This document shows, in pieces, positions 3,771 to 9,274 of a DNA stretch of 23,044 nt. The notes beneath the pieces were generated by a model. It did no database searches. It saw only the letters and a program-made list of their open reading frames with translations, and was not told the DNA's origin. Source of the stretch: a virus (Duplodnaviria > Heunggongvirae > Uroviricota > Caudoviricetes); the IMG/VR virus record IMGVR_UViG_2778261246_000008; one strand, 5' to 3'. Every line of letters starts with the position of its first letter. Positions within the stretch are counted from its first letter, which is position 1. The translations under genes were made by a program, and so were the position numbers.

Positions 3771-6593
3771 ATGACGGCAGAGTACATCAGGGACTGGCAA
3801 CAACCGCGCCACGCAGTGGGGCGTGAAGGAACGGGGATCCCCGCTCCTGAATCCGCGCTTTCCTCCTGGCTGGATGCCTACCGGGTAGAGAACGAGCGCC
3901 GCCAGGAAATGGCTGATGCGGCCTTCTCCGCCACGCCACTGGGCAACCTGATTAATAAAAGCCTGGACGCACAGGAAAAACAGGACAAAACCATCACACT
4001 GGCAGGAGACGCCAGAAAACAGGCACGCGGCGCGGTGGATGAAGCCATGGCCTCGCTGCGCCTGCTGCCGTCCTATCTGCGCGATCCGCTTATTCGCCAC
4101 CTCTCCTTCCTGCGCAAAAAACAGGAAGCCGATCGCCGGAAAGGCAAAAAGAGCTGGCAGGCGGAACGCTATGCACGCGGAACCCTGCGCAAAATATTCG
4201 AACGTCTGGATCGCACTGACGGACACTGGCTGACACCGGGTTATCGCTCCCTTGCCGGACGCGAACGCCTGGACGATTTGCTTTACCTGCCGCAGCTCAA
4301 CAAACACCAGATACAGACGCTGGCCACCATGACGGCGGCGATGTTCAGCAGCACCTTCGAAAAACTCTGCGATGGCTTTGGCGCGACCGATGGCGAACTG
4401 ACCATGGATGTAACGCTGAAGGCGTATCAGATGCTGGCCCGCATGGCGTTACACCTGCACATCATGCCTCCACATTATGACGCACTGACAACAGATAAAG
4501 ACCGGAGGAACGAACCGGACACGGAGCTGCTGCCGGGCGCAATCCTTCGCCTGACCTGTGCGGAATGGTGGAAACGCAAACTGTGGCTGTTACGTTGCGA
4601 GTGGAGAGAAGAACAACTCCGCGCCGCCTGTCTGGTTTCCAGAAAAACATCACCCTATCTGAGCCAGGACGCGTTAAGCGAGTTTCGCGCACAGCGCGAG
4701 AAAACACGCGATTTCCTGAAAAGTTTCATGCTGGAAAACGAAGACGGGTTCACGATTGATCTCGAGACAGTGTATTACGCGGGAGTAAGTAACCCGGTTC
4801 ACCGTAAGGCAGAAATGATGGCCACCATGAAGGGGCTGGAACTTCTGGCCGAAGCCCGTGGCGACAAAGCGGTGTTTCTGACTGTCACCTGCCCGTCAAA
4901 ATACCACGCCACAACAGAGAACGGTCATCCGAATCCCAAATGGAACGGGGCCACCATGCGCGACTCCAGCGATTACCTAGTTAACACGTTTTTTGCAGCG
5001 GTCCGCAAGAAACTGAACCGCGACGGCCTGCGCTGGTATGGCATCCGCACGGTGGAGCCTCACCATGACGGCACCGTGCACTGGCATATGATGGTCTTTG
5101 CTCATCCGGAAGAAATCGACACCATTGTGTCCCACACCCGCGATATTGCCATTCAGGAAGATCGTCACGAGCTGGGTGATGATATTACCCCACGCTTTAA
5201 GGCGGAGTACGTCGACGGCTCAAAAGGCACGCCAACCAGCTACATCGCCACCTACATCGGAAAGAACCTGGACAGCCGCGCCGTGGATGGCATCGACCCG
5301 AAAACGGGCAAGCCACGCGTTGACCACGAAACAGGTAAATCAATGGCCGAGAGCGTGGAGCGCGCCATCGGCTGGGCGCGCCTTCACCGGGTCCGCCAGT
5401 TCCAGTTCTTTGGCATCCCCTCCCGTCAGGTGTGGCGTGAACTCCGCCGCCTTGCCAGCCAGATGGCACGCAACCCGGAAGGCCCGCAACGGCTGAAGGA
5501 TGACGCAATGGATGCGGTACTCGCTGCCGCTGATGCCGGATGTTTTGCCACCTACATTGAAAAACAGGGTGGCGTACTTGTTCCGCGCAAGGACTACCTG
5601 ATTCGCACAGCCTACGACCTCGCAGATGAGCTGAACGATTACGGCGAACAGAGTGTACAGATTTACGGGATCTGGTCGCCATTCATCGGGGAATCCTCCC
5701 GTGTGTGCACGCATCCGGATAACTGGAAGCTGGTAAGACGTAAACCGGAAGCGGAAGACAGCGCCCGCGAAAATGGTTTTGACCTTCAGGGCGGCCCTGC
5801 CGCCCCTTGGACTCGTGGCAATAACTGTCCCCGTGTACAGGAAACGGACAACAACGGGACAGAACAGCCGGAAGAACGGCCAGCACCGTGGCCGCAGCTC
5901 CCTGATGGCGTTGAAGTGAACGAATGGATGCGCTCACTGAAACGACACGAACGCCGGGCGCTGATGCGTTCGCTTCGTGACAAACAGGCAAAAAACAGCA
6001 GCGATGAAATGCAGAGCTGGACACAGAGCCGCAAACAGCCACGGCCTTTGCCTGATAACCACGAATTACTCGCTAAAGAATGGCGGGAGTCTGCTGAATC
6101 TCTCGGCCTGCATATCGGTGAACAACAGATGCAGCACCTGTTACGGGGCGGCAGTCTGTACGTTGACGGCAGCATCATTGCACCGCAGGGATTTGAAATT
6201 GTACGCAAACCGGATACCCGCCCGGACAGCCGAATCACGCAGCTCTGGCAGCGCCTGAGCCGTAATCATGGCGTAAGCAGCACGGAGATCCGCCATAACC
6301 CGGTCGCCAGCTATCTGGCACAGCTGGGGGCATCAGACCCTGAAGCCGCCGCACGCCTGGCATCCACACTTCAGCAGGACCAGAACACCATGAAAACACC
6401 CGTTACCGTGCTTTCTGACATGCTGCGCGCCATCCGCGACGCAGAGCACGCACAGAGAATCAGTGAAACCACTGAACGCGCCAGCCGCAAAGCAGACCTG
6501 CTGCGGGGTGGCATGACCAGTGGAAACAAAAAACAGACAGAAACGGGATTCACAAATCCCATAAATGAGCAAAAAACGTGCCGCGATATATGA
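3771..6593 (+). CDS. A: Rolling-circle replication initiator / endonuclease, P2 gpA family
   Basis: 940-aa ORF with the HUH metal-binding motif (TVHWHMMVF) and the paired catalytic tyrosines (TSYIATYIGKN) typical of P2 A-type initiators. Position after the early small genes matches P2. Confidence 0.9.
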   Translation: MTAEYIRDWQQPRHAVGREGTGIPAPESALSSWLDAYRVENERRQEMADAAFSATPLGNLINKSLDAQEKQDKTITLAGDARKQARGAVDEAMASLRLLPSYLRDPLIRHLSFLRKKQEADRRKGKKSWQAERYARGTLRKIFERLDRTDGHWLTPGYRSLAGRERLDDLLYLPQLNKHQIQTLATMTAAMFSSTFEKLCDGFGATDGELTMDVTLKAYQMLARMALHLHIMPPHYDALTTDKDRRNEPDTELLPGAILRLTCAEWWKRKLWLLRCEWREEQLRAACLVSRKTSPYLSQDALSEFRAQREKTRDFLKSFMLENEDGFTIDLETVYYAGVSNPVHRKAEMMATMKGLELLAEARGDKAVFLTVTCPSKYHATTENGHPNPKWNGATMRDSSDYLVNTFFAAVRKKLNRDGLRWYGIRTVEPHHDGTVHWHMMVFAHPEEIDTIVSHTRDIAIQEDRHELGDDITPRFKAEYVDGSKGTPTSYIATYIGKNLDSRAVDGIDPKTGKPRVDHETGKSMAESVERAIGWARLHRVRQFQFFGIPSRQVWRELRRLASQMARNPEGPQRLKDDAMDAVLAAADAGCFATYIEKQGGVLVPRKDYLIRTAYDLADELNDYGEQSVQIYGIWSPFIGESSRVCTHPDNWKLVRRKPEAEDSARENGFDLQGGPAAPWTRGNNCPRVQETDNNGTEQPEERPAPWPQLPDGVEVNEWMRSLKRHERRALMRSLRDKQAKNSSDEMQSWTQSRKQPRPLPDNHELLAKEWRESAESLGLHIGEQQMQHLLRGGSLYVDGSIIAPQGFEIVRKPDTRPDSRITQLWQRLSRNHGVSSTEIRHNPVASYLAQLGASDPEAAARLASTLQQDQNTMKTPVTVLSDMLRAIRDAEHAQRISETTERASRKADLLRGGMTSGNKKQTETGFTNPINEQKTCRDI

Positions 6594-6632
6594 AGCGCGC
6601 ACAAAACAGGCAAAAGCGGGATTTAAAAATCC
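6534..6632. repeat. Two copies of a ~27-bp direct repeat, each with a palindromic core (GGGATT-N4-AATCCC and GGATTT-AA-AAATCC)
   Basis: ACAGACAGAAACGGGATTCACAAATCC (6534-6560) and ACAGGCAAAAGCGGGATTTAAAAATCC (6606-6632), about 22/27 identical, spanning the 3' end of A and the A-parM intergenic region. Confidence 0.5.
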
Positions 6633-6669
6633 TGTAAACGATTAATTAATCAACATAAGGAAAAGCGAC

Positions 6670-7629
6670 ATGAAAATTTGTATCGACGACGGCTCCACCA
6701 ACATCAAGCTGGCATGGACTGAGAACGGCGAACGCCGCAACGCCATCAGCCCGAACAGCTTCAAGTCGGAATGGTCTGCGCCGTTCGGTGGCTCGCAGCC
6801 CGCGAACTACATGCTTGATGGCGTGCGCTATGGTTTTGATCCGGTCAGCGATCGCTTTGTCCAGACGACCGACACGCAATACCAGTACAGCGATGTGAAT
6901 GTCATTGCCATTCATCACGCGCTGGTCAAATCAGGCATCACGCCACAGGAGGTGGATGTGGTTGTCACCCTGCCATTGAGCGAGTATTTCGACACAAACG
7001 CACAGCCGGACATGGCCAACATCAGCCGCAAAAAAGCGAACGTTATGCGCCCGGTGGAGTACCAGAACGGCGAAACATTCACTATCCGTAACGTACGGGT
7101 TATGCCTGAATCCATTCCGGCTGGCTTTAAGGCACTGGCTGACATGAGTCCGTTTGAATCCCTGCTGATTGTGGATTTGGGCGGAACCACTCTGGATGTG
7201 GCAAAGGTTCAGGGGCAACTGGCAGGTATCAGCCAGGTGTTTTGCGATCCACACGTAGGCGTTTCTCTGATGGCCGATGCCGTACTGTCGGTGATGGCCA
7301 CTAACGGTATGCGCACCAGTCACCACATCGCCAATACCATTATCGAACATCGCCATAATGAAGCCTGGCTGCGCCAGCACATCCACAATGACGCGCATTA
7401 CGCCAGCCTGATGGCGATTATTCGTGAAAAGGAAGAAACACTGAAACAACGCGTGATCCGCGCGCTGGCGGGTTTTTCGGGTTACGGGCGGGTGATGGTT
7501 GTCGGTGGCGGGGCGGAGATTGTGGCACCCGCTATCCGCGAAGCCTGCGGAGTTAATGCGACTTTCATCGCGGACGGGGTGCCACAGTTTGCTCTGGTTA
7601 ATGGGCTGTACGCAATGGACAAGGAGTAA
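6670..7629 (+). CDS. parM: Actin-like ATPase of the ParM/StbA family
   Basis: The N-terminus MKICIDDGSTNIKL, plus SPNSFK, YSDVNVIAIHHAL, VMPESIPAG, LLIVDLGGTTLD and VVGGGAE, line up with the phosphate-1, connect and adenosine motifs of plasmid R1 ParM as recalled. AAGGA Shine-Dalgarno upstream. Confidence 0.85.
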   Translation: MKICIDDGSTNIKLAWTENGERRNAISPNSFKSEWSAPFGGSQPANYMLDGVRYGFDPVSDRFVQTTDTQYQYSDVNVIAIHHALVKSGITPQEVDVVVTLPLSEYFDTNAQPDMANISRKKANVMRPVEYQNGETFTIRNVRVMPESIPAGFKALADMSPFESLLIVDLGGTTLDVAKVQGQLAGISQVFCDPHVGVSLMADAVLSVMATNGMRTSHHIANTIIEHRHNEAWLRQHIHNDAHYASLMAIIREKEETLKQRVIRALAGFSGYGRVMVVGGGAEIVAPAIREACGVNATFIADGVPQFALVNGLYAMDKE

Positions 7630-7633
7630 ACCA

Positions 7634-7945
7634 ATGACGACACCAACCAGACGGATAAGTTTCTATCTGAAGCCCGCCGCCGTCAAGAACGAAGGTGAAG
7701 CATGCGCCTGGCTGGACAGCCTTACACCAGAAGCGCGCAAAAGCGGCCAACGCGTGGCTTTTCTGGCCGGGCTGGCACTTCTGAAAATGAATCCGGCAGA
7801 GGCTTACCGACTGGCTGCATGGGCTGATGATGAAGCGTTATCAGTGACACAAACCAGGACAGAACGCCCCGCGTCACAGCCAGTATCAACCGCACAGATA
7901 ACCAGTCAGATGGCTGGAAATATCCGGGCGTTATTTCCCGAATAA
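7634..7945 (+). CDS. parR: ParR/StbB-like adaptor, probable ribbon-helix-helix DNA-binding protein
   Basis: Immediately downstream of parM with an AAGGAG Shine-Dalgarno. RISFYLKPAAV...AFLAGLALL...IRALFPE parallels the R1 ParR pattern from memory. Size (103 aa) and position fit the family. Confidence 0.6.
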   Translation: MTTPTRRISFYLKPAAVKNEGEACAWLDSLTPEARKSGQRVAFLAGLALLKMNPAEAYRLAAWADDEALSVTQTRTERPASQPVSTAQITSQMAGNIRALFPE

Positions 7946-8008: not shown

Positions 8009-8344
8009 ATGCAACGCATTGACAGAGAAAAAGCGCAGCGACTGATTGAGCGGATGGAAGCGCTGGCGAAAGAAGAAAATGTCAACATCCAAAAAATAGC
8101 TGAATGTGGCCAGATAGTTCTTCGTCGTGAAAAAGACCTCAAACAACTGATGTCTGGCGAAACCAGCAAAACATGGACTTCAGGTGAGGAGACGATTTAT
8201 TGCAGCTTCTGCAATAAATCCCAGTACGAAGTCACAAAGGTGATTGCCGGACCGTCTGTTTACATCTGCAATGAGTGCGTTGATTTGTGCAATGAAGTTA
8301 TCAGGAGAGAAGTGACAGACCATGAAGAAAAAACGCATGAATGA
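8009..8344 (+). CDS. Stand-alone ClpX zinc-binding-domain-like protein (C4 zinc ribbon) with an unrelated N-terminal helical extension
   Basis: The C-terminal segment [40 protein letters not shown] is near-colinear with the N-terminal zinc-binding domain of bacterial ClpX (CSFC...CxxC), but there is no AAA+ module. AGGGGGA Shine-Dalgarno. Confidence 0.8.
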
Positions 8345-8510: not shown

Positions 8511-8918
8511 TTAAATATAATCTTCTTCGTAGTCGCTGATTAATTCATTGCCATAATCAGACAGCAATTTCAAAGCAAAGGTAACTTCCTCAAGGGTAGC
8601 TATCCCCATTGCTGAAAACACCGTTAATTTAACCAGCAGCAGGGAGTTTGAAAGTTCGGAAGAGTTCATCATTAAAAATATTGATGCAGCCTGAAAAGCT
8701 GTGCGTTTATTCCCATCATGAAAGGCATGAGCCTTGGCTATACCAATCAAATACATAGCAGCCAGAGCATGAATATCATCAACCCCTTCATAGTAGTGTA
8801 GTGTCCTGACGCGATTTAAAGCACCTTCAAGTAGCCCGTCATTGGCATTTCCGCTCTGGGGTAAAGTTTCAGCATGGATACGTTCTACTTGTTCTTTTGA
8901 CAAAAACACTATGTCCAT
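8511..8918 (-). CDS. doc: Doc-family toxin (Fic/Doc fold)
   Basis: Contains the Fic/Doc motif HAFHDGNKRTA. Its start overlaps the stop of the upstream antitoxin gene as ATGA on the minus strand. AT-rich relative to the phage backbone. Confidence 0.85.
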   Translation of the reverse strand: MDIVFLSKEQVERIHAETLPQSGNANDGLLEGALNRVRTLHYYEGVDDIHALAAMYLIGIAKAHAFHDGNKRTAFQAASIFLMMNSSELSNSLLLVKLTVFSAMGIATLEEVTFALKLLSDYGNELISDYEEDYI

Positions 8919-9274
8919 CAGTTATCCTCAAGCTTTTTAATGATATCCGCATGTTTTTCTCTTGTACGCTTCATTGCATCTTCAAAAGACAATCCTTTTT
9001 TTCTCTGTGCGACAAGAGCTGGATGACGTTTTTCCAGATCTCTCACTGCATTTATTAAGAGTGGTTGCTTCATTTTGTTTATTTGATCCCGCAGTTTTTT
9101 GGTTTTGCCAAGGACAGCCCGTATTTCAGGACTAAGATCAGAACCAGCAAGAACAACATCCTTCCCTCCCTGCGCCGTGATAACGACACTGCCACCGGAA
9201 GAAAGGTAATCCAGAATTTCACTCAGGTTCTCACGAAATTCATCATCAGTTACAGTTTTCATATTCATTTCCAT
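8918..9274 (-). CDS. phd: Phd/YefM-family antitoxin
   Basis: Small acidic protein immediately upstream of doc and translationally coupled to it. The N-terminus (KTVTDDEFRENLSEILDYL) fits the Phd/YefM pattern. The true start may be one of the internal ATGs (MEMNMK). Confidence 0.7.
   Translation of the reverse strand: MEMNMKTVTDDEFRENLSEILDYLSSGGSVVITAQGGKDVVLAGSDLSPEIRAVLGKTKKLRDQINKMKQPLLINAVRDLEKRHPALVAQRKKGLSFEDAMKRTREKHADIIKKLEDN

Follow-up and report, generated by a model that had tools for sequence, protein, structure and literature searches.

Introduction

In plasmid pB171, many short direct repeats form two partition sites that bracket the genes upstream and downstream. The ribbon-helix-helix N-terminal domain of pB171 StbB/ParR, the protein of PDB 2JD3, is said to bind repeated DNA cooperatively. 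The parC site of plasmid R1 consists of curved DNA in which two sets of five 11-bp repeats surround a 39-bp promoter region (PMC2241845). An actin-like filament, a DNA-binding adaptor, and specific sites also make up the AlpA/AlpC/alpS system of Corynebacterium prophage CGP3, and AlpAC is reported to aid viral DNA transport and replication (PMC4446434, PMC5539076). The presence of a ParM/ParR cassette in the gpA-gpQ cargo hotspot of P2-like phages was already noted by Rousset et al.; the passages searched describe neither a centromere nor repeats (PMC9122126). No description of the putative centromere presented below was found in the literature searched.

Herein, we analyze a 23,044-nucleotide stretch of DNA (the window), which is a P88-like prophage (Xuanwuvirus, P2 family) of E. 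coli. We put the probability at about 70% that two 42-bp repeat blocks between its replication gene and its parM and parR genes serve a type II ParMRC cassette as its cis-acting centromere/operator (parC), bound by ParR. They would then most likely be a previously uncharacterised instance of a familiar type of site.

Results

Gene Context of the Repeats

P88-like phages integrate, and 1530 of 1532 placements in complete E. coli genomes were chromosomal. The cassette was carried by about a quarter of the complete E. coli genomes (1370 of 5426), and O157:H7 and other pathogenic lineages were among the carriers. Its slot, the gpA-gpQ hotspot, is bounded by gene A and the portal gene. A Phd/Doc addiction pair neighbours the cassette in the window. 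The ORF map places the repeats between the 3' end of gene A and parM/parR:

3771-6593, plus strand: replication gene A, 940 aa, endonuclease, Pfam Phage_GPA family.
6657-6661, plus strand: parM Shine-Dalgarno AAGGA, with CATAAGGA, a leader motif common to R1-type parM.
6670-7629, plus strand: parM, 319 aa, actin-like partition ATPase (Pfam StbA_N, 4e-82; ParM C-terminal model, 1.6e-67).
7634-7945, plus strand: parR, 103 aa, centromere-binding adaptor (Pfam Plasmid_stab_B, PF10784, 4e-24).

Copy 1 lies inside the last ~22 codons of A, whose stop codon is TGA at 6591-6593, and copy 2 lies in the 76-bp gap between A and parM. The repeats thus span the 3' end of A and the parM leader, as originally predicted. 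They stop 29 nt before the parM ATG at 6670, forming a co-oriented site directly upstream of parM-parR. The last ~20 codons of A extend into the par cassette. In a relative (L194), A ends at the residue aligning with residue 921 of the window's A.

By its family profile, ParR belongs to the ribbon-helix-helix ParR/StbB family. The profile matched pB171 StbB/ParR (PDB 2JD3, E = 1.9e-14), the only solved structure that it matched, and a single-sequence ParR search of PDB gave no match. Over its N-terminal 56 aa, ParR is 34% identical to R1-type ParR. The N-terminal segment TRRISFYLKP, which aligns to the family beta-strand, was invariant in all alleles, even where the C-terminal half of ParR was only about 50% identical. 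By this alignment, TRRISFYLKP probably corresponds to the DNA-reading strand. The invariance of this strand leaves no room for covariation between ParR and the putative site within the clade. A single-chain AlphaFold prediction for ParR was of poor quality (pLDDT 57), rendering the strand as a helix, and was left out of fold searches. A ParR word search found just this clade. ParM/ParR was also considered as a defence system and rejected, with no PADLOC match.

Anatomy of the Repeat Blocks

A repeat finder run on the window returned one family with two direct copies, at 6527-6568 and 6600-6641. The copies are 42 nt each and identical at 33 of 42 positions (79%), with a start-to-start distance of 73 bp. 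The region is composed as follows:

6527-6568, no strand: repeat block 1, 42 nt, phased A-tracts and palindrome 1, within the A ORF.
6543-6562, no strand: palindrome 1, ACGGGATTCACAAATCCCAT, from the sequence and a motif scan.
6569-6599, no strand: core between the blocks, 31 bp, holding the A stop codon.
6600-6641, no strand: repeat block 2, 42 nt, phased A-tracts and palindrome 2, in the A-parM intergenic region.
6616-6635, no strand: palindrome 2, GCGGGATTTAAAAATCCTGT, from the sequence and a motif scan.

The repeat finder and the motif scan confirmed the paired repeats with palindromic cores that the original prediction had described, and they proved larger than noted. The 27-mers given there as about 80% identical and 72 bp apart (21 of 27 positions by count) are the inner part of the copies, whereas the real units are 42 nt long and 73 bp apart.

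Each block contains one 20-bp palindrome. The consensus of the relatives, ACGGGATT-N4-AATCCCGT with 8-bp arms, holds for both palindromes at most of about 80 related loci. In the window, the inverted repeats read GGGATTCACAAATCCC at 6545-6560 in copy 1 and GGGATTTAAAAATCCT at 6618-6633 in copy 2. Palindrome 1 is ACGGGATT-CACA-AATCCCGT in most relatives, and their commonest palindrome 2 allele is ACGGGATT-TCAG-AATCCCGT. A dimeric DNA-binding protein at the palindromes is a reasonable expectation from this symmetry. Allowing at most one mismatch, the motif GGGATTNNNNAATCC occurred at just these two sites in the 23-kb window, giving 4 strand-matches against 0.49 expected, and none of 100 shuffles reached 4. 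No further copy of the palindromes occurred in the rest of the window, elsewhere in the first 18 kb of P88, or elsewhere in 29.5 kb of a related genome, and so they do not belong to a dispersed regulon. The motif scan also found no second site after parR.

The DNA around the palindromes is strongly phased. With a period of 10.6 bp, the A-tract phasing of 6520-6644 ranked first among 917 scan windows of this sequence, and by eye a loose CAnAAA pattern recurs every 10-11 bp in the repeats. For a centromere, two inverted-repeat sites would be a small number if ParR did not bind the A-tract flanks as well.

Inheritance and Conservation

Comparison of relatives supports inheritance of the repeats together with parM/parR and independently of the 3' end of A. 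Two mosaic relatives (L193 and L050) differ at the 3' end of A and carry an extra 155-aa ORF, yet both repeats and parMR are kept, and their homology to the window begins at about 6529. In L194, IetA/IetS come after an A of 97% identity, and both parMR and the palindromes are missing. In a Hafnia phage that has the repeats, parM and parR are the sole genes of the slot and the ClpX zinc-finger ORF is lacking. ParM and ParR are the sole cassette proteins that always accompany the repeats.

All carriers are close relatives, with the Hafnia phage as the only well-diverged one, so the comparative depth is shallow. Most carriers are 95-99% identical, and conservation among them says little. Two IMG/VR scans returned close relatives only, with ParM at least 98% identical to that of the window or 94-95% identical to the Hafnia query. 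A two-site DNA pattern scan with one genome per species added three more P88-like loci; its remaining matches came from Desulfobacterales, Poribacteria, and other non-enteric genomes, whose repeats are unrelated. A presence/absence comparison across phage records was uninformative, as every P88-type A there accompanies parM.

The Hafnia alignment shows that conservation of the repeats acts at the DNA level. Four flank and palindrome segments were 0.80-0.94 identical between Hafnia and the window (60 of 72 positions combined), and the flank at 6600-6615 was identical at 15 of 16. The 31-bp core reached 0.57, versus 0.62 at 4-fold degenerate sites of parM. The core is thus no more conserved than neutral sites, and the repeat blocks are above neutral. 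The A stop codon of Hafnia falls in the centre of palindrome 1, the 73-bp spacing is also kept there, and Escherichia, Salmonella, and Hafnia all preserve the arms. Substitutions in the arms are tolerated, with GGGACT in about a third of the loci; such changes would fit degenerate protein sites but prove nothing.

Promoter Signals

A consensus promoter scan of the region found none. A weight-matrix scan gave one weak candidate:

6622-6650, plus strand: weak sigma-70 promoter candidate, TTTAAA-17 nt-ATTAAT, with the -35 element in the centre of palindrome 2.

The score of this candidate was 6.9, where 200-nt windows of this sequence had a median of 5.6, and a sigma-70 promoter here is speculative. 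The best candidate on the minus strand scored 8.3, about the 90th percentile of the background. The consensus and weight-matrix scans together gave no convincing sigma-70 promoter between or after the blocks, and the operator role is therefore weak.

Alternative Explanations

The region folds strongly as RNA. The z-score against shuffles was -4.4 for the 141-nt region on the plus strand, and -3.2 and -4.6 for the single hairpins. Such folding could point to hairpins in an A-parM transcript that affect processing, stability, or parM translation, or to intrinsic terminators on the minus strand. This is unlikely, as similar palindrome pairs always fold well and fold scores are unspecific. Rfam gave no match with E up to 1 across 6300-6900 on either strand. 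No intrinsic terminator was found on the plus strand, and neither hairpin has a U-run behind it on the coding strand. The A-rich flanks read as a T-rich run behind each hairpin on the minus strand, where the terminator scan passed palindrome 1 alone, but this stem has just 3 G-C pairs, and the DNA just downstream holds neither a gene nor a good promoter on the minus strand. Terminator-like sites in the region numbered 2, versus 1.2 expected. A hairpin of the core (GTGCCGCG...CGCGCAC, 6578-6602) was rejected as a minus-strand terminator, being unconserved in Salmonella (L098), Hafnia (L087), and some E. coli alleles. Changes in the palindrome arms are never compensated (GGGACT/AATCCC at many loci, CAGGATT in L050, AAACCC in L031), and both copies carry the same arm sequence across the three genera, which hairpins alone would not need. 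The palindromes could instead be operators at which another dimeric protein, from host or phage, regulates cargo genes without any centromere. Symmetric dimers such as helix-turn-helix regulators classically bind a 20-bp palindrome whose 4-nt centre varies, and R1-type ParR sites are direct repeats rather than palindromes. However, these sites occur only beside parMR and are lost with parMR, and only ParM and ParR are constant among the cassette proteins. The P88 immunity region holds no copy of the palindromes, and an unsystematic comparison by eye with consensuses of common E. coli regulators recognised no match. Taken together, these points leave a separate operator improbable.

The original prediction also offered the repeats as part of the A-dependent replication origin. 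The P2 record annotates its rep_origin at 29892, inside gene A, and copy 1 likewise lies inside the A ORF. Rolling-circle initiator nucleases of A's superfamily often use hairpins near nick sites, which would suit an A-binding or accessory element. A scan of the whole window that allowed up to 3 mismatches gave no match to the P2 nick site GCGCCTCGGAGTCCTGTCAA, and DNA alignment to P2 located the homologue of this site away from the repeats:

5791-5828, plus strand: P2 ori nick-site homologue, predicted nick near 5809-5811.

About 31 of its 38 bases match P2, though the proteins are only 30% identical. It forms a separate conserved island (93-95% versus Hafnia) about 730 bp upstream of the repeats. 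Moreover, the repeats are not present wherever the cognate A is, since L194 lacks them beside its nearly identical A, and they persist behind a different ORF in L193 and L050. Other A homologues are unaligned past residue ~256 of a 340-aa C-terminal query and therefore lack the tail that holds copy 1. The origin explanation is already largely refuted, and we consider it highly improbable. A duplication without function that merely travels with the cassette is also a very improbable account of the repeats. The near identity of most carriers would be compatible with this, but the blocks exceed the neutral rate against Hafnia while the core does not, the spacing and arms have been kept across genera, and the A-tract phasing is the strongest in the window.

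Discussion

The ParR-bound parC that we favour agrees with the earlier proposal of a parC-like centromere or operator for the downstream ParR, which position, architecture, and comparative genomics now support. The locus combines several features of a type II parC: a site upstream of parM-parR, a ribbon-helix-helix ParR, clustered repeats, and co-inheritance. From these we infer ParR binding, centromere activity, and autoregulation. In the mechanism that we propose, the ribbon-helix-helix ParR would bind the two 20-bp palindromes as dimers. A distance of 73 bp, about 7 helical turns, separates the palindromes, which would therefore lie on the same face of the DNA. ParR would probably spread over the phased A-tract flanks and wrap the intrinsically curved DNA into a partition complex. 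This complex would capture the ends of ParM filaments, and the filaments would push copies of the circular phage genome apart. ParR at block 2 may also control parMR expression, because this block overlaps the only promoter-like site and the parM leader.

A tentative extension, which we hold to be possible but rather doubtful, is that the ParMRC cassette is an active device of an integrating P2-family phage and not a passive plasmid relic. If so, an unintegrated or excised circular genome might segregate as a facultative plasmid, helped by Phd/Doc. Alternatively, replicating genomes might be positioned during lytic growth, as by AlpAC in CGP3. With parC fused to the end of the cis-acting A, ParR could then affect A expression or the passage of the rolling-circle fork. 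The likely centromere offers a small and concrete target of two 20-bp palindromes. Plasmid persistence of an integrating P2-like phage, action during lytic replication, and the way in which a ribbon-helix-helix ParR would read inverted rather than direct repeats are now testable. The putative centromere is now set apart from both the probable origin at 5791-5828 and the native end of gene A, which helps annotation and the engineering of P2-like vectors.

Comparison with Known Systems

Other occupants of the gpA-gpQ slot are defence systems, such as IetAS in L194. The likeness to AlpAC of CGP3 is a functional analogy only, drawn from its description: the host belongs to another phylum, and the alpS sites are not comparable. 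pB171, whose StbB/ParR supplies the one structural match, has two sites in par2, whereas the window has a site upstream of parM alone within the motif scan. A related ParM (47% identity) is found in just one further phage record, that of the plasmid-prophage D6. Judging from the P1-like genes and the ParA-like partition protein in its record, D6 is apparently a plasmid prophage, in contrast to the integrating P88-like phages. Its repeat clusters also lie upstream of parM, but its ATTCTCAA-type repeats and its ParR N-terminus differ from those of the window.

Compared with R1 parC, the window carries two 42-bp blocks with one 20-bp palindrome each in place of two sets of five direct 11-bp iterons, and the R1-specific ten-iteron arrangement (5 + 5) is absent. 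The R1 core is 39 bp with a clear par promoter that ParR represses, whereas the core here is 31 bp, is unconserved, lacks a clear promoter, and includes the stop codon of A. Between the repeats of the two systems there is no sequence relationship, except for a resemblance by eye between AAATCCC and AAAACCC. Nevertheless, both sites lie directly upstream of parM-parR, both place two repeat clusters around a short core in A-rich DNA that is phased and curved, and both are accompanied by homologous ParR proteins of the same Pfam family and by the CATAAGGA leader of parM. The R1-type, IncL/M, IncI, and phage D6 loci share this arrangement of a core between two repeat clusters immediately ahead of parM, and every locus has a repeat sequence and a ParR N-terminus of its own.

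Results and Discussion

Two palindrome-bearing repeats at the end of gene A

The original prediction described two 27-mers of about 80% identity, 72 bp apart, with palindromic cores. The repeats proved real and larger: a repeat finder placed one 42-nt copy at 6527-6568 and a second, in direct orientation, at 6600-6641, with a spacing of 73 bp and 79% identity between them. An inverted repeat lies within each, GGGATTCACAAATCCC (6545-6560) in copy 1 and GGGATTTAAAAATCCT (6618-6633) in copy 2. Their predicted placement was also borne out, with copy 1 inside the final ~22 codons of A (stop 6591-6593) and copy 2 in the intergenic leader of parM. The locus shares 96-98% identity with members of Xuanwuvirus (P2 family, Peduoviridae), Escherichia phage P88 among them, and the region around the repeats matches the E. 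coli strain C7 chromosome at 100% identity.

Features of the locus
3771-6593, replication gene A, 940 aa (Pfam Phage_GPA, 6e-132)
6670-7629, parM (StbA_N, 4e-82)
7634-7945, parR (Plasmid_stab_B, 4e-24)
8009-8344, ORF with a ClpX-type C4 zinc finger, 111 aa
8511-8918 (-) and 8918-9274 (-), pair of Doc (Fic/DOC, 3.5e-11) and Phd-type antitoxin (7.8e-07, slightly below the Pfam cut-off)

The palindrome motif is confined to these two sites in 23 kb (4 strand-matches versus 0.49 expected; 0 of 100 shuffles reached 4). It was not found elsewhere in the first 18 kb of P88, immunity region included, or in 29.5 kb of a related genome. Full 20-bp palindromes, ACGGGATT-N4-AATCCCGT, are the most frequent forms among ~80 related loci, and variation falls chiefly in the 4-nt centre, at one copy-1 arm position (T to C) and in the outermost bases. 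Helically phased A-tracts with a period of 10.6 bp span 6520-6644, the strongest such signal in the window (rank 1 of 917). The second-strongest, of T-tracts at ~8926-9100 between the cargo genes and the portal gene, may lie near cos. A perfect 12-bp palindrome, GATTAATTAATC, occupies 6640-6651 between block 2 and the parM ribosome-binding site and has no conserved counterpart in the Hafnia relative. Palindromes of the type found in the two repeat blocks, CGGGATTnnnnAATCC(C), occur in multiple dispersed or tandem copies in Desulfonema magnum, other Desulfobacterales and Poribacteria (12 loci); ParM, ParR and A were each absent near these repeats, which are unrelated to the phage locus.

The repeats travel with the par cassette

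On genome comparison, the repeats belong to the par cassette, as three natural variants demonstrate. L193 (E. coli 2014EL-1345-2) and L050 carry a different A allele of 877 aa, which ends ~400 bp earlier and is followed by a 155-aa zinc-ribbon ORF; homology to the window restarts at ~6529 with the opening bases of copy 1, and parMR and the two repeats are all kept. The A of L194, a P88-like prophage of E. coli SA31-1, is 97% identical to that of the window and stops at the residue aligned with residue 921 of the latter, immediately ahead of palindrome 1, 19 codons shorter at its end. The IetA/IetS defence pair (L194 5318-8688) takes the place of parMR in the slot, and neither palindromes nor parMR follow A. 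The Hafnia phage (L086, L087) carries parM and parR alone in the slot, with both palindromes and the 73-bp spacing retained. The native end of A therefore lies near 6530, and the last ~20 codons of the window A are read-through into the par cassette. The 155-aa ORF (L193 5598-6065), unannotated and between the shorter A allele and the cassette, has an N-terminal CxxC...CxxC zinc ribbon and zero Pfam matches; its last ~20 codons enter copy 1, and its stop codon is the one used by A in the window.

The slot, between gpA and gpQ, is a known cargo hotspot of P2-like phages (Rousset et al., PMC9122126). In agreement with this, the region is present in 1370 of 5426 complete E. coli genomes, where it is almost always chromosomal (just 2 of 1532 places are plasmid-borne). 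A quarter of E. coli genomes contain an integrating phage with a plasmid partition system whose putative centromere is joined to the end of gene A. The ClpX-type zinc-finger ORF lies 3' of parR in most E. coli carriers; the Hafnia phage has the repeats without it. The Doc/Phd-type pair shares the slot with parMR, and the P88 record annotates zero minus-strand genes in the corresponding stretch. The plasmid-prophage P1 uses the same kind of addiction module. One P88-like genome with integrase, A, parMR and phage structural genes (NZ_CP148288.1, 34,461 bp, 29.5 of 34.5 kb viewed) was submitted as a non-mobilizable circular plasmid from a feline E. coli isolate, and may represent episomal carriage or assembly of excised phage DNA. 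An enterobacterial-type P88-like A-parC-parM-parR (ParM 96.6%) also sits on a 226-kb contig titled Vagococcus sp., a Gram-positive genus (NZ_JBQPOM010000071.1); this label may reflect contamination or mislabelling.

Function of the repeats

Identity between the window and the Hafnia phage
Flanks and palindromes of both blocks, by segment: 0.80-0.94 (60/72 overall)
Core of 31 bp: 0.57
Part of gene A directly 5' of the repeats: 0.41
parM, 4-fold degenerate sites: 0.62

The Hafnia A stop is a TGA at the centre of palindrome 1, GGGATTCA-TGA-ATCCC, so the palindrome is not conserved at the protein level. Several copy-1 variants in E. coli, read from the alignment, also alter an amino acid. The stems are the same in both copies and across genera, which points to recognition of a specific sequence. 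Transcript hairpins or minus-strand terminators are an unlikely explanation. The RNA hairpins fold well, but any two similar palindromes would; Rfam gave no match for the repeat region, and arm changes are uncompensated among related loci. On the minus strand, T-runs follow the hairpins and a loose terminator filter accepts palindrome 1, although no obvious transcription there needs termination. Operators for another regulator are a possible but unlikely reading, since the sites are local and lost jointly with parMR.

Both left arms are changed from CGGGATT to CAGGATT in L050/L160, and the T of AATCC is substituted in both right arms in L031/L180; the ParR DNA-binding domain is unchanged in these cases. 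Such matched changes could arise from short-patch conversion between copies or from selection for matched sites.

The proposal that the repeats form part of the A-dependent origin was not upheld. The P2 record annotates the A nick site at 29892, within gene A, and P2 GCGGCATCGCCGCGCCTCGGAGTCCTGTCAATAACTGT aligns to window 5791-5828 GCGGCCCTGCCGCCCCTTGGACTCGTGGCAATAACTGT with ~31 of 38 bases matching, while the A proteins share just 30% identity. This stretch is an island of 93-95% identity to the diverged Hafnia relative L087, against 40-80% in the rest of the gene. From the match and the island together, the replication origin probably lies at 5791-5828, ~730 bp upstream of the repeats. The origin reading of the repeats was also rejected because the 97%-identical A of L194 exists without palindromes.

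A consensus scan found no good sigma-70 promoter at the locus. The best candidate, TTTAAA (6622) and ATTAAT (6645) separated by 17 nt, has its -35 inside palindrome 2 and scores barely over background. A terminator scan found no plus-strand terminator after A, which suggests that parMR is probably transcribed as part of the early operon; it may in addition have a weak promoter under ParR control.

Comparison with known centromeres

We consider a parC-type centromere/operator of a P88-like ParMRC cassette the most likely identity of the repeats, with a probability of about 70%. This candidate from the original prediction is favoured by linkage to parMR, conservation at the DNA level, the ParR family and the layout. 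The profile of this ParR family matches only pB171 StbB/ParR (PDB 2JD3, E = 1.9e-14), and the N-terminal domain of the phage ParR is 34% identical to R1-type ParR. The N-terminal segment TRRISFYLKP is invariant across all alleles, including mosaics with a C-terminal half only ~50% identical. In parR of the window and four compared loci, conservation covers the first ~20 residues and an NI..LFPE motif at the C terminus; between alleles, identity in the middle and C-terminal half falls to ~50%, while ParM stays at 98%.

R1 parC comprises ten 11-bp iterons, five on either side of a 39-bp promoter core; its DNA is strongly curved, and each iteron binds about one ParR dimer (PMC2241845). The phage locus differs in having inverted rather than direct units, just two clear sites, and a core that is not conserved, holds the A stop codon and lacks a good sigma-70 promoter. 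The R1-type, IncL/M, IncI and D6 loci each combine a distinct repeat sequence with a distinct ParR N-terminal strand, and all have two repeat clusters around a core upstream of parM, as here.
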